Positions 28,922 through 54,962 of a DNA stretch of 59,829 nucleotides are shown piece after piece. The notes below the pieces were generated by a model, which was not told the origin of the DNA, made no database searches, and was given only the letters and a program-made list of their open reading frames with translations. Source of the stretch: Patescibacteria group bacterium (GTDB taxonomy: Bacteria > Patescibacteriota > Minisyncoccia > Phycocordibacterales > UBA918); the NCBI GenBank assembly GCA_040386275.1, contig JAZKFU010000003.1, positions 112,554 to 172,382 on the forward strand. The letters run 5' to 3'. Made by a program: the position numbers and the translations under genes. The stretch's first letter is position 1. Every line of letters begins with the position of its first letter.

Positions 28922-29039
28922 AAATCAGCACAATGCTTAAAATCTTGTAGCTACTAGGCGCGCAAGGAAAATGTTGCGAGTCGTATTTTTATACGGTGAG
29001 TGACATTTTGCCGCAGCGCAACAACGTAGATGCTGATTT
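28922..29039 (+). repeat. family-C palindromic repeat, copy 1
   Basis: Core GAGTCGTATTTTTATACGGTGAG (28978-29000) inside nested inverted repeats, AAATCAGCA...TGCTGATTT ends. Confidence 0.75.
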
Positions 29040-31526
29040 TTAGCTTTGGGCTTCTACGAAGACGATGGATGCGATGCTATCCCCTGCCCGCATCTTCATC
29101 ACCCTCACCCCTTGGGTCTGACGACCCAATGTTGGCACGTCTTTAAGTGGCAGTTTAATTACCTGACCTTTCTTACTCATAATCACGAGCTCGCCTTCAA
29201 TCCGCTGTTCGCCTCCGACCACCGTTCCGCCGACAATCGTACCGGTCTTATCGGTTACTTTAGCGGTTTTAATACCTGATCCACCACGCTTTTGGACTTT
29301 GTATTCTTTAATTGGCGTAGTTTTACCGTAGCCATGTTCAGTTACAATCAAAATTTCCATGTCCTTGGCGCCTTTTTTGATGACGTCAGCCGAGACGATA
29401 AAGTCTCCTTTACCAAGTTTCATCGCGGCTACACCAGTCGCTATACGTCCCATTTCGCGCACATCACTTTCTTTGAAGCGGATGGCTTGACCCTTATAGG
29501 TCACGAGTGACAATTCGTCTCCTTTGCCAACAAAGCGAGCTGAGATTAATGAGTCGTCATCACGTAAGGTAATGGCAATCAAACCACTGCGACGGACATC
29601 CTTGAAGGCAATTGCGTCTGATTTTTTGGCCACTCCGTTTTTAGTTACCATCATCAAACTCCATTCTCCTTGCCACTCTTCTTTTCGAACAGCAAGCACT
29701 GATGTCACACGCTCTTCCGCGCTCATTGAGAGGAAGTTCATGATTGATTTTCCTTTAGTCGCCCGGCGACCTTCAGGAATTTCATACATCTTACTTTGGT
29801 ACACCTTACCTTTATCAGTAAAGAAGAGGAGGTCTGAGTGAGCCGAAGTAGTAATCAAACTAGTAACCACGTCTTCTTCTTTGGTATTGAGGTCAATCAC
29901 GCCGACGCCACCCCGCTTTTGGACGCGGTATTCGTCAGGATTAGTCCGTTTTACATACCCGCCAGCGGTCAGCACTAACACACTTTCGTCATCGGGAATG
30001 AGGTCTTCTTGACTCATCATTTTTACCCCACCTTTGACAATTTTTGTACGTCTGTCATCACCATATTTTTCGGCAATTTCGAGCAATTCACTTTTAACGA
30101 GCCCAAGCATTTTTGCCTTACTCTTTAAGATTGCTTCCAAGGCTTTGATTAATTTTTGCACTTCAGCCAACTCTTCTTCAATTTTCTTGCGTTCAAGTCC
30201 TGCAAGTTTTTGCAGACGCATATCAAGAATTGCTTGGGCTTGAATGGCGGAGAATTTAAACTCCTTCATCAACGCCGCGTGTGCGGTCGGCACATCCTTA
30301 CTCGCGCGGATTAATTTAATAATCGCATCAATGTGATCAAGCGCTTTTTTGAGACCAAGCAAGATGTGTTCACGATCTTGTGCTTTAGTTAAATCGTACT
30401 GGGTTCGACGACGGACCACTTCAGCCCGGTGTTTTACGTATTCTTCGAGAATTAATTTAAGTGATACCGTTTGCGGAATCCCATCAACCAAAGCCACCAT
30501 GTTGTAGTGGAAGGTGTCTTCCAGTTGGGTGTGTTTGTATAACTTATTTAAAACTGTTTGTGGTTGGGCGCCTGATTTTAGTTCGATAACCACCCGGATG
30601 TCATTGGTGGACTCATCACGCATTTCACGAATTCCTTCGATTTTCTTTTCGCGCACTAAATCAGCAATCTTTTCCTGCATGTCCGCCTTGTTTACCCGGA
30701 ACGGAATCGAGGTAATAATAATCGCAAAGGCGCCTTTTTTATCTTCCACAATCTCCGCTTCACCACGCACCACGACACCACCACGCCCGTGTGTATAGGC
30801 GTGTTGAATGTCCTTTTGGTTAAACGCTACCGCTCCCAAAGGAAAATCGGGACCTTTTACAAATTTAAGCAGATCATCCGTCGTGGCGTCAGGATTATCA
30901 ATTAGATATTCAACGGCCAGTGAAATCTCACGCAAGTTGTGTGGTGGAATATTGGTCGCCATTCCCACCGCAATACCGAGTGTTCCCATGAGTAACAGGT
31001 TTGGTACAGCCGCCGGTAAGACAATTGGTTCTTGTTTCGTGCCGTCAAAGTTTGGTCGCCAATCAACGGTATCTTTTTCTAGATCACGCAACATTTCTTC
31101 CGCCAGGCGAGACATTTTTGCTTCGGTATAACGATAGGCAGCGGCTGAGTCACCGTCAATAGAACCAAAGTTTCCTTGTCCTAATACTAGTGGGTAGCGG
31201 GTAGCAAACGGTTGCACCAACTTTACCATCGATTCATACACTGCAGCGTCTCCGTGTGGGTGAAAGTTACCGAGCACGTCTCCTACGACCGTCGCTGATT
31301 TTTTGAACTTGCCACTGGCATTAAGCCCATTTAACCGCATCGAGTATAAAATACGGCGGTGCACAGGCTTGAGACCATCACGAATATCCGGGAGGGCCCG
31401 GGAGGTGATTACCGACATCGCATAGTCGAGATAGGAAGTCTCCATCTCACCAGTGATACTTTGTGCCACAATACCGCGTTCAGGCATCGGGGCAGCGGCT
31501 TCGGGAGCAATTGTCTTCTTCGGCAT
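29040..31526 (-). CDS. gyrA: DNA gyrase subunit A
   Basis: [21 protein letters not shown] catalytic Tyr, GyrA-box QKRGGVG. Confidence 0.97.
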
Positions 31527-31583
31527 AACAGAAATTACAAACTATTGATAAGAATTCGTGGCGCTAGTATACCACGAAAAAAA

Positions 31584-52617: not shown

Positions 52618-54786
52618 ATGAGCGAGCAAAATAATTCGGTAACTACCAGCACCCCTGAGATATTCCTTAAACCCTATAACCCTATAGAGCACGAGGCATC
52701 AATTTATAAAATGTGGGAGGAATCAGGGTATTTTAATCCTGATAATTTACCGGGAGAACGAACCGAGCCGTTCTCTATTGTAATGCCACCACCTAACGCC
52801 AACGGGTCGCTTCATGCGGGACACGCGTTATTTGTGACAGTACAAGATATTATGATGCGCTTTAAACGGATGCAGGGATATAAGGCACTGTGGTTACCGG
52901 GCGCCGACCATGCTGGATTTGAGACACAAGTAGTATATGAAAAGAAACTTGAGAAAGAAGGCCGGTCACGATTTGGCATGGATCCAAAAGAACTCTACGG
53001 AGAGATCATGGATTTTACCCTCACCAATAAATCGTTTATGGAAAATCAAATCCGTGAACTCGGTGCGTCATGTGATTGGTCTCGTTCCCTCTTTACCTTA
53101 GACGAACGGGTGATTAAAACCGTAAACCAAACATTTAAACAACTTGAAACTGATAACTTATTGTATCGTGGAGCCCGTATTGTTAACTGGTGTTCCAAGC
53201 ACCAGACTTCCCTCTCAAATCTTGAGACTGAACACATTGAACGTAAAGATAAATTTTACTACTTCCAATACGGACCGTTTGTGATTGGTACCGCCAGGCC
53301 GGAAACTAAATTTGGTGATAAATACGTGGTCATGCATCCAAACGACACCCGCTATGCTGAATTTACGCACGGCCAACAAATTGAAGTTGAATGGATTAAC
53401 GGACCAATTACGGCGACCGTGATTAAAGACGAAGCCAGTGATCCAGAAATGGGATCGGGAGTGATGACGATTACGCCGTGGCACTCGGGAGTAGACTTTG
53501 AAATTGCAAAACGTCACAACCTCGACTATGAGCAAATCATTAACTGGCAAGGAAAGCTCCTTCCGATTGCGCAAGAATTTGCCGGACTCTCAATCAAAGA
53601 TGCCCGGGAAAAGATTGTCGAGAAACTGCAGAGTAAGGGGTTGGTTGTAAAAATTGATGAAGAGTACATTCACTCAGTACCCTGCTGTTATAAATGTGAC
53701 CGCGAGATTGAACCACAAATTCGCGAACAGTGGTTTGTTAAAACAAAACCACTCGCTGAAAAGGCGCTGGCGGCAGTTGATAGTCAAGAACTTACGTTTA
53801 CTACTGATCGTGATGAACGGGTATTTCGTGACTGGATGGAAAAAATTGAGGATTGGAATATTTCTCGCCAAGTGGTATGGGGAATTCCGATTCCGGCAAA
53901 AGTCTGTACCGAGTGCGGTCACGGTATGGTTGATTTAGAAAATACGATTACGACCTGTACCAAGTGCAACGGCGCTGTGGTGCACGACCCCGATACGTTT
54001 GATACCTGGTTTAGTAGTGGACAGTGGCCACTCGCGACTACCGATTACCCTAATGGTAATGATTTCAAAACCTACTACCCCACGAGTGTTATGGAAACTG
54101 GGAAAGACATCATCTTTTTCTGGGTAGCCCGGATGGTAATGCTAGGAATTTATCGTACTGGAAAGACTCCGTTTAAAACAGTGTACCTCCACGGGATGGT
54201 GCGTGATAAACACGGCAAAAAAATGAGTAAGAGTAAGGGGAACGTGATTGCACCCAGTGAGATTCAAGAAAAATATGGTACTGACGCGTTGCGTATGGGA
54301 CTGATGGTAAACAATGCTCCGGGTACTGACATGAATCTTGATCCTGATAAAGTAAATGCCTATAAAAAGTTTGCGAACAAACTGTGGAATATCACGCGCT
54401 TTGTTTTGGATAACACCCACGACTATGTACCAGGTGTACCGCATACCGAATCAGATACACAATTTGAAAAAGAATTTTTGTATCCAGCGATTGTTGAAAT
54501 CACTGCCAATATGGAAAATAATCGTTTTGATTTAGCGTCAGAAAAAATTTACCATTTCATTTGGGATCATTTCGCCAGCCAAGTCATCGAAGAATCTAAA
54601 CCCCTCCTTGAACAAGGTGGTGCTATACGTGCCTCACGACAACGCCTGCTCGCACACTATTTAGTTACCTCAGTAAAACTACTGCATCCCTACATGCCCT
54701 TTGTGACCGAAACAATCTGGCAAGAACTACCTAAAGAAATCAAAGATGCGGACATGCTTATCGTAGCTCCGTGGCCCACAGTCTAA
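52618..54786 (+). CDS. valS: valine--tRNA ligase (no C-terminal coiled coil)
   Basis: PPPNANGSLHAGH, PGADHAG, WNISRQVVWG, KMSKSKGN. Confidence 0.95.
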   Translation: MSEQNNSVTTSTPEIFLKPYNPIEHEASIYKMWEESGYFNPDNLPGERTEPFSIVMPPPNANGSLHAGHALFVTVQDIMMRFKRMQGYKALWLPGADHAGFETQVVYEKKLEKEGRSRFGMDPKELYGEIMDFTLTNKSFMENQIRELGASCDWSRSLFTLDERVIKTVNQTFKQLETDNLLYRGARIVNWCSKHQTSLSNLETEHIERKDKFYYFQYGPFVIGTARPETKFGDKYVVMHPNDTRYAEFTHGQQIEVEWINGPITATVIKDEASDPEMGSGVMTITPWHSGVDFEIAKRHNLDYEQIINWQGKLLPIAQEFAGLSIKDAREKIVEKLQSKGLVVKIDEEYIHSVPCCYKCDREIEPQIREQWFVKTKPLAEKALAAVDSQELTFTTDRDERVFRDWMEKIEDWNISRQVVWGIPIPAKVCTECGHGMVDLENTITTCTKCNGAVVHDPDTFDTWFSSGQWPLATTDYPNGNDFKTYYPTSVMETGKDIIFFWVARMVMLGIYRTGKTPFKTVYLHGMVRDKHGKKMSKSKGNVIAPSEIQEKYGTDALRMGLMVNNAPGTDMNLDPDKVNAYKKFANKLWNITRFVLDNTHDYVPGVPHTESDTQFEKEFLYPAIVEITANMENNRFDLASEKIYHFIWDHFASQVIEESKPLLEQGGAIRASRQRLLAHYLVTSVKLLHPYMPFVTETIWQELPKEIKDADMLIVAPWPTV

Positions 54787-54857
54787 CCATTCCCTCTCCC
54801 CAAAGAAACAATATCCTTAAGTAAGCCAGATTGTTTTGCTGTTACAATAGAATCAAT

Positions 54858-54962
54858 CAGAAATGAGTGAAGTTCGCGGCGGACGAGTAATGTAGTCCGA
54901 GCCGTACTTTTTGTACGGTGAGGAATACATTGCGAAGGACAACAAAGAAATTCGCCATTTGT
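54858..54962 (+). repeat. family-C palindromic repeat, copy 5
   Basis: CAGAAATGAGTGAAGTTC...GAGCCGTACTTTTTGTACGGTGAG...AGAAATTCGCCATTT. Confidence 0.8.

Follow-up and report, generated by a model that had tools for sequence, protein, structure and literature searches.

A dispersed hairpin element of about 125 nt, anchored to gene ends with its fold on the antisense strand, in Patescibacteria and other bacterial phyla

What are the structured repeats that recur at the ends of unrelated genes in Patescibacteria? The question is raised by a stretch of 59,829 nt (hereafter, the window) from a Patescibacteria group bacterium of the Minisyncoccia lineage UBA918 (assembly GCA_040386275.1, contig JAZKFU010000003.1, positions 112,554 to 172,382), which corresponds to C3:112554-172382 of the genome called G000 in this work (982 kb, 99.9% complete, 44% G+C). 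The initial annotation of the window reported five copies of a repeat of 105-120 bp next to gyrA, pth, ftsA and valS, and regarded them as an unnamed structured family, similar either to repetitive extragenic palindromes (REPs) or to miniature inverted-repeat transposable elements (MITEs), and separate from tRNA-trailer modules. We describe these repeats as a non-coding gene-end element of ~125 nt, defined by its structure and dispersed at ~100 copies per 0.98 Mb. The element has a selected, strand-specific fold and a fixed orientation, is anchored to the ends of open reading frames (ORFs), and has a patchy yet cross-phylum distribution. It apparently represents an undescribed family among dispersed palindromic repeats.

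A covariance model built from the copies of this genome (R1) detects seven copies in the window, at 83-113 bits, and everything else scores 17 bits at most, even with the filters off. The core CGTAC-N3-6-GTACG occurs six times in the window, against 0.15 occurrences expected by chance. The five copies initially reported are all found at the positions given, but their number fell short of the seven present; similarly, the size assigned to the repeat was roughly right, but the units are somewhat longer, measuring 117-133 nt. The strings said to be shared among copies (GGCGCGCAAG, CCGCAGCGCAAC, CAGAAA..TGAAGTTC and AGAAATTCGCCATTT) are all there. A search for additional copies, suggested in the same annotation, yielded 100 R1 matches in the genome.

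Each element is a single long irregular hairpin. The outer helix, P1, is locus-specific, and frequently carries a run of A residues on one arm and a run of U residues on the other. P2 is semi-conserved, and includes a single or tandem G.A mismatch (CAGAUGC/GCAGAUG or CAGUGC/GCAAUG). It is joined to P3, a short semi-conserved GC helix, by an asymmetric junction, the sides of which co-vary as sets (UAG+AACAACG, AAG+AACGCAG, GCG+AACAAAG, GAG+AACGAAG). An AA/GCA internal loop and a fully variable helix, P4, follow, and the internal loops are purine-rich. The tip is nearly invariant, and reads GAG-CCGUAC-(4-5 nt loop)-GUACGG-UGA; at its base a G.A, an A.G and a conserved G.U pair (71 of 86 copies) are stacked below a stem of 6-7 bp. 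Members of a subfamily, called type B, share the tip UAGACGUAC...GUACGGCGGAA and are nearly identical in their interior, but have outer arms which differ at each locus.

The initial annotation had proposed covariation as a check of the fold, and covariation is strong. RNAalifold predicts 36 pairs from 86 aligned copies, 30 of which show compensatory changes. Pairing is observed in 89.4% of the cells, against 65.0% in shuffled alignments (none of 500 shuffles reaches the observed value), and falls to 35-44% when one partner is slid; cells with double changes are 750, against 246 expected. The self-complementary arms, variable from locus to locus, which had been noticed around the core are borne out as covarying, locus-specific stems. 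At the P2-P3 junction (in the window, for example, 40515-40525 and 40455-40470) four discrete combinations are found, UA/AAC, AA/GCA, GA/GAA and GC/AAA, none of which can make Watson-Crick pairs. Their co-variation could reflect an isosteric non-canonical motif, or merely the linkage of variants within subfamilies.

The fold is not equally shared by the two DNA strands. The strand carrying GAGCCGTAC (hereafter, the structured strand) is more stable than its complement in all the 86 aligned copies, the mean folding energies being -52.9 vs -36.7 kcal/mol with RNA parameters, and -26.1 vs -20.5 kcal/mol with DNA parameters. G:U and U:G cells outnumber A:C and C:A cells 355 to 54, and still 284 to 54 if the conserved G.U pair is set aside. 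The polarity of the fold goes along with a polarity of location. Using a crude ORF map of the genome, 69 of the 86 copies were found to have, at the 3' end of the structured strand, a convergent gene encoded by the other strand. The stop codon of this gene is located -14 to +9 nt from the hairpin end in 62 copies (median 0), and three further copies are the outer partners of tandem pairs. By contrast, the distance on the 5' side of the hairpin is unconstrained, and ranges from 7 to 788 nt. The element begins at the end of the ORF, or a few codons into it, in one orientation, its fold being antisense to the mRNA of the ORF, and sometimes provides the stop and the final codons of the latter. Orientation is better predicted by the abutting gene (69:17) than by GC skew and replication (61:25), and replication-coupled orientation was rejected as the weaker rule. 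The location at gene 3' ends proposed in the initial annotation is upheld, but fixed orientation, anchoring to stop codons, antisense fold and spread across phyla had been missed.

The element is common in the genus, being found in 29 of 31 genomes at 2 to 100 copies each, and sporadic in the Patescibacteria at large, where 28 of 301 sampled genomes, scattered over many families, carry it. G000, G018 and G024 have 75-100 copies, and G355 and G356 none. A scan for the exact core covered 185,579 species genomes. The matches listed include Saccharibacteria and Kaiser-, Pacei-, Zambryski- and Uhrbacteria, and, unexpectedly, also Burkholderiales isolates (Polaromonas sp. JS666, Xylophilus, Janthinobacterium and Massilia), Myxococcota, Acidobacteriota ('Acidoferrum'), Rokubacteria and others. 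The same long-hairpin layout is found in the flanks of nearly all the exact-core matches, and full-length copies are recognized by R1 in an Acidoferrum genome (14), in a Rokubacteria genome (11), and elsewhere. A second model, R2, was built from 25 Burkholderiales copies, and used to score 150 candidates per genome. By this model, Polaromonas JS666 has 10 copies, and two other Polaromonas genomes have 7-8; two Xylophilus genomes have 42 and 38, a record labelled Sphingomonas 32, Massilia mucilaginosa 30, and Janthinobacterium violaceinigrum at least 85. The Burkholderiales copies covary as well (93.9% of cells paired vs 74.3%), and contain internal GUAG motifs, directly repeated on the two arms. 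Of the seven window copies, R2 retrieves four, full-length and on the correct strand (E 6e-6 to 3e-3), which indicates that the Patescibacteria and Burkholderiales forms are related beyond the tip.

The association with stop codons extends outside the candidate phyla radiation (CPR). At 58 of 118 loci, an ORF of 120 codons or more, in convergent orientation, has its stop no farther than 15 nt from the hairpin 3' end, against 10 of 116 in a mirror-image control. Nearly all the Burkholderiales loci obey the rule, and in Xylophilus the conserved arm GTGA(A/G)AGAACC itself holds the TGA which ends the ORF. Plasmid records contain just single, unannotated copies, found on Ralstonia megaplasmids and on one Comamonadaceae plasmid; the copy on the megaplasmid of Ralstonia solanacearum Po82 (127.5 bits) overlaps by ~10 nt the stop of a convergent ORF of 495 codons. 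Phage records gave no match to the element. As to the Sphingomonas record (titled Sphingomonas sp. NCPPB 2930), one element and its flank are nearly identical to a copy of Xylophilus sp. Leaf220; the record, with its 32 copies of the Burkholderiales type, may be mislabelled.

The seven copies of the window illustrate both the rule and its exceptions. Copy 1 (28927..29054, plus strand, 109.4 bits) folds at -40.2 kcal/mol, vs -30.4 on the opposite strand, and the 3' end of the hairpin covers the stop codon of gyrA (minus strand, 29040-29042) together with the final codons of the gene. Copies 2 (34808..34935, plus strand, 110.9 bits) and 3 (34940..35068, plus strand, 98.2 bits) form a head-to-tail tandem pair. 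Copy 2 is the outer partner, and a plus-strand gene for an S1-domain protein ends ~507 nt upstream of it; copy 3 is of type B, with the variant core TAGACGTAC-loop-GTACGGCGGAA, and the 3' end of its hairpin covers the stop codon of pth (minus strand, 35063-35065). In this pair, as in the other tandem pair including a type-B copy (C3:15293/15421), it is the type-B copy that adjoins the stop codon. Copy 4 (40429..40556, minus strand, 106.8 bits) resides between ftsA and ftsZ, and its 3' end contains the TAG stop of ftsA (plus strand, 40432-40434). Copy 5 (54848..54975, plus strand, 113.1 bits) is an exception to the orientation rule, having the same sense as its neighbours; it is located 62 nt past the stop codon of valS (54784-54786), and 1-2 nt ahead of the ATG (54974) of a gene for a PrsW-like protease. 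The neighbour genes initially reported were confirmed, gyrA and pth by Pfam. Copies 6 and 7 are absent from the initial annotation. The former (17789..17913, minus strand, 83.5 bits) is found in a divergent spacer, ~62 nt upstream of, and in the same sense as, a minus-strand gene for a class-V aminotransferase; the latter (59613..59742, minus strand, 84.1 bits) is ~220 nt upstream of a minus-strand DivIC-like gene.

Comparison with relatives shows that the set of occupied sites differs among genomes. The ftsA-ftsZ site is filled in G000 and in the two relatives nearest to it, G018 and G007 (FtsZ identity 96% and 88%), and empty in at least 10 congeners (FtsZ identity of 85% or less), in which a conserved block, a candidate ftsZ promoter, is found ~16 nt after the ftsA stop. 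When filled and empty sites are compared, the element is seen to replace the final codon or codons, and to supply the stop (DEVV* becomes DEVQ*, NCKFATPAP* becomes NCKF*); one copy in this comparison is flush upstream of a start codon. The block upstream of ftsZ deserves a separate mention. The sequence GTCAAAGACACACTTGTCACGTTCGTCAATATAGTGACAGGATTTTTTATTACCTGTATGATACA (window 40632-40700) is identical in G018 and recognizable across the genus. Inverted GTCA/TGAC repeats are present in it, as is GTGACA-17-TATGAT, which resembles a promoter; the block is a candidate for the promoter of ftsZ, accompanied by an operator.

For G018, the comparison covered 391 kb, with coding flanks ~66-87% identical in DNA. 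As many as 27 of its 38 copies share site and orientation with a G000 copy, and 11 have no G000 partner. At shared sites the elements have kept their motifs, although the adjacent spacer DNA is unalignable. Two copies occupying one site resemble each other scarcely more than copies paired at random (identity 0.68 vs 0.61), and are mutual best matches in only 5 of 24 cases. In some pairs the outer arms are kept and the inner stem differs, and the tip may even have a C-G pair turned into G-C; in others, the partners belong to different subfamilies. This divergence is compatible both with rapid compensatory change and with the replacement of copies in place. One copy of G018 (C1:27102-27229) is GC-rich (61%), has sense orientation, and directly follows an ATG. 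It would read in frame as an N-terminal insertion of 43 codons missing from the G000 protein, and is either an in-frame insertion resembling Rickettsia palindromic elements (RPEs), or part of the 5' untranslated region (UTR) if the true start is located downstream.

In co-directional spacers the presence of an element goes with ~100 nt of additional length (medians 143 vs 47 nt), and the extra DNA beyond the hairpin has no sequence common to loci. Decayed copies were not found in the window with the filters off, and few copies are degenerate in the whole genome. The hypothesis that the longer spacers belong to the element, or hold the remains of old copies, was rejected, given the unrelated tails and the lack of relics.

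Does the element belong to a known family? At the gathering threshold, Rfam 15 matches only tRNAs in the window; at permissive thresholds nothing better than E=0.23 was obtained over the elements, and no match was found at the elements of 18 loci from other phyla. Papers were searched both for sequence strings and for key words; none of those covered has the core strings in a relevant context or describes the element, the one of use being a general account of REPs (PMC3733652). The repeats had been regarded as an unnamed structured family, separate from the tRNA-trailer modules. Both views are supported, and the element also differs from the short REP hairpins of the genome; no known repeat family was matched, and further copies do occur in the genome. 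Membership in a REP/RAYT-like or MITE-like family, also proposed, is in contrast not borne out, as argued below. The core GAGCCGUA(C/U)...(G/A)UACGGU presumably resembles the lower helix of domain 5 of group II introns, but the likeness was judged coincidental or untestable. Domain 5 itself, a 34-nt part of an intron with an AGC triad, a 2-nt bulge and a GNRA loop, was rejected, upper helix, bulge and GNRA loop being absent, and Intron_gpII giving no match; a resemblance to the sarcin-ricin loop was likewise judged coincidental or untestable.

Similarities with established systems are nevertheless instructive. As REP, BIME and REPIN sequences associated with RAYTs (REP-associated tyrosine transposases) in Enterobacteria and Pseudomonas, the elements are dispersed extragenic hairpins, mostly found downstream of ORFs, with termini able to supply stops; copy number varies between relatives, and strand-specific recognition of single strands is plausible for both. 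REPs, however, are palindromes of 20-40 nt with a GTAG tag at the terminus, and a REPIN consists of two REPs in inverted orientation, whereas the element is a multi-helix structure of 125 nt, with conserved tip and variable base, no RAYT association, an orientation fixed relative to the ORF, a fold on the antisense strand, and motifs conserved across phyla. The ERIC (enterobacterial repetitive intergenic consensus) sequences, or IRUs (intergenic repeat units), of enterobacteria are imperfect palindromes of ~127 bp found in transcribed intergenic regions. The element resembles them in size, in forming a single long imperfect hairpin, in the lack of a known transposase, and in location next to ORFs. 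By description, the two are set apart because ERICs are conserved in sequence within one bacterial family and occur in both orientations, whereas the element has locus-specific stems and fixed orientation, and is found in several phyla.

The attC sites of integrons are also imperfect palindromes (~60-140 nt) which directly follow, and often overlap, the stop of the ORF ahead of them. Structure prevails over sequence in their conservation, as in the element, and they work as folded bottom strands, antisense to the ORF. Unlike attC, however, the element lacks cassette arrays and R''/R' core sites, no RYYYAAC/GTTRRRY pair being found in the alignment, and its copies are found on all contigs, dispersed behind housekeeping genes; integrase genes were not searched for. 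MITEs, such as Correia elements, and RPEs are, like the element, small, non-coding, hairpin-forming and multi-copy, and, as in-frame RPEs, occasional copies of the element precede start codons, or may be in frame inside ORFs. Yet, the element has no conserved terminal inverted repeats, its outermost 6-12 bp differing at every locus, even in the near-identical type B, and neither a consistent target-site duplication nor, in a search for Y1_Tnp and for recurrent neighbour genes, an autonomous partner was found. Finally, bidirectional intrinsic terminators may likewise have a hairpin over the stop codon of an oppositely oriented gene, and A and U runs beside the inner stem, as seen in many copies; the element is far longer, has conserved internal loops, and lacks a regular U-tract.

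How did these elements come to reside at gene ends? We tentatively prefer, short of even confidence, the view that they are non-autonomous elements, with a lifestyle similar to that of REPs and ERICs, copied into or replaced at ORF ends via a folded single strand, and then kept as gene-end modules. The intermediate could be either single-stranded DNA or antisense RNA, and a trans-acting factor other than a RAYT would read the conserved tip and the purine-rich loops of the folded strand. Once placed, the element would be retained, being harmless or useful; it could, for instance, bar transcription from running into the gene from the 3' side. Signs of mobility are the range of 2-100 copies among congeners, the patchy occurrence in the phylum, the presence/absence pattern at the ftsA-ftsZ site, the G018 copies devoid of a partner, the different subfamily members often found at shared sites, the final codons replaced at filled sites, and the type-B copies adjoining the stop in tandem pairs. 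Retention is suggested by the 27 of 38 sites shared with G018 in spite of unalignable spacers, by the paucity of degenerate copies, and by the lack of relics in the window.

Several observations weigh against this scenario. No mobilizing enzyme was found by searching for Y1_Tnp, the one transposase domain covered, and checking neighbour genes; no gene recurs next to the element in 117 loci. Target-site duplications were not found as a general feature. TA or TAG...CTA symmetry is seen at both ends of several copies, including the one at the ftsA site, but not generally, and empty sites are too diverged to define junctions at the base level. No recent insertion event was found, near-identical strains not being on record. 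Mobility is accordingly deduced from distribution only. The better fit of orientation with genes than with replication argues against a coupling to the lagging strand of the IS200/IS605 type. There is no obvious source for a single-stranded DNA form of the template strand, and no -10-like peak was found at a fixed distance before the structured strand (47 matches vs 38 on the opposite strand). About 20% of the copies break the stop-codon rule, and several of these exceptions, among which copy 5 of the window, stop 1-26 nt short of the start codon of a gene with the same direction. Finally, almost all copies are intact at ~55-61% identity, a finding which fits selection by the host better than a selfish repeat.

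A possible, though less probable, alternative is that the element is a host RNA working in cis on the structured strand, as an insulator, a terminator or a processing site for transcription heading to the 3' end of the gene, originated either by read-through from a convergent gene or by divergent transcription from the next promoter. The flush placement would keep antisense RNA off the coding region, and the element could act in both directions. In favour of this view, it is the strand antisense to the adjoining gene whose fold is selected, and, whatever the arrangement, a source of transcription lies 5' of the structured strand; for 45 of the 86 copies it is the start of a divergent gene, and for 22 a gene of the same direction. 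The A-rich and U-rich runs beside the inner hairpin in many copies, the intactness of the copies and the conservation of sites between species are in keeping with the hypothesis. Yet, a consistent U-tract past the hairpin is missing, conservation of loop sequences across phyla is not needed by a terminator, and a number of copies ranging from 0 to 100 within one genus would be odd for an essential signal. The terminator scan flagged no whole element, but only the 7-bp tip of copy 2 and short sub-helices in copies 1, 3 and 4. In the sense of gyrA, the stop codon is followed by copy 1, and then by a canonical terminator-like hairpin (28839-28876, minus strand), which implies that the element must be in the gyrA mRNA, but is not its terminator. 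The notion that the element is itself an intrinsic terminator is unsupported, because of the irregular U-tracts and of this separate terminator. Hairpins followed by U-runs, and similar to canonical intrinsic terminators, were found in the window at 28839-28876, 33019-33041, 36092-36116 and 38025-38058, several being bidirectional. Ordinary terminators thus coexist with the 125-nt elements in this genome.

It is improbable, to a higher degree, that the element works on the sense strand, as a 3'-UTR component stabilizing the mRNA 3' end, or modulating termination or ribosome release. Such effects were reportedly described by Liang, Rudd and Deutscher in 2015 for E. coli REPs located 15 nt or less from the stop codon. 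The element is flush with the stop codon, in a fixed orientation relative to the ORF, is included in the gyrA mRNA, being interposed between stop and terminator, and still folds at about -37 kcal/mol on the sense strand. The asymmetry of pairing, however, favours the other strand in 86 of 86 copies, and the excess of G:U over A:C cells means C.A mismatches in the sense RNA where the antisense strand pairs; the conserved G.U beside the tip would similarly be C.A in the mRNA.

The hypothesis that the element is an ordinary REP or REPIN family mobilized by a RAYT, a Y1 transposase of the IS200/IS605 type, is largely refuted, and very little credit can be given to it. The GTAG REPs are mostly found downstream of ORFs, and their termini often supply a TAG stop; some REP classes have no dedicated transposase (PMC3733652). 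The extragenic location, mainly 3' of ORFs, the ability of the termini to supply stop codons, the hairpin shape, the variable copy number and the GUAG motifs of the Burkholderiales form all recall REPs, and G000 has one weak RAYT-like gene (C8:231705-232298), with a HUH motif and a score below cut-off for NCBIfam REP_Tyr_transpos. The initial annotation had suggested looking for a RAYT flanked by the repeats. This sole RAYT-like gene has on its flanks, and at its own end, another hairpin, of 25 nt, AAGTACGAGGTTAAACCTCGTACTT, present in ~16 copies, none of which inside the 125-nt elements. Y1_Tnp gave no match in three Xylophilus-type genomes carrying 32-42 elements, and at 10 RAYT loci of Janthinobacterium, Massilia and Polaromonas no element was found within 1.5 kb. 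The architecture is moreover the reverse of that of REPINs, the tip being invariant and the base locus-specific, and the size is 117-133 instead of 20-40 nt. The 25-nt hairpins are a separate, classical REP-like family, with a variant, AAGTTCGAGGCGAGACCTCGAACTT, and one copy in the window (52553-52575), just upstream of valS; copies both flank the RAYT-like gene and lie within its 3' coding end (C8:231624-232290).

That the elements are ~100 independent small-RNA genes with own promoters, antisense to gene 3' ends, is hardly credible, since the promoter-like peak is missing and the 5' flanks have no common sequence, although RNA-like motifs (tandem G.A pairs, the conserved G.U), the AT-rich spacer 5' of the structured strand and the additional length of element-bearing spacers could be read in this sense.

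A broader view, speculative and at present rather unlikely, is that the elements represent a pan-bacterial, strand-specific punctuation of gene ends shared by Patescibacteria, Burkholderiales, Myxococcota and Acidobacteriota. According to this view, stop codons would be fitted with the module, and a conserved factor would read it on the strand opposite to the mRNA. The system could be either a new mechanism of single-strand insertion homing to stop codons, or a dedicated barrier to antisense transcription.

The ~100 intact copies of one folded element take up ~1.3% of a minimal genome of 0.98 Mb, an outlay hard to square with junk in streamlined organisms. A fold opposite to the mRNA is not predicted by the standard roles of gene-end hairpins, be they terminators, mRNA stabilizers or REPs. 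The recurrence of architecture, tip and stop-codon rule in distant phyla implies either an old, widely shared partner acting in trans, or a non-autonomous element of a new kind that spreads efficiently by horizontal transfer. Cultured Burkholderiales such as Janthinobacterium, Polaromonas and Massilia carry from 7 to at least 85 copies, and bench tests would thus be possible beyond the uncultured CPR.

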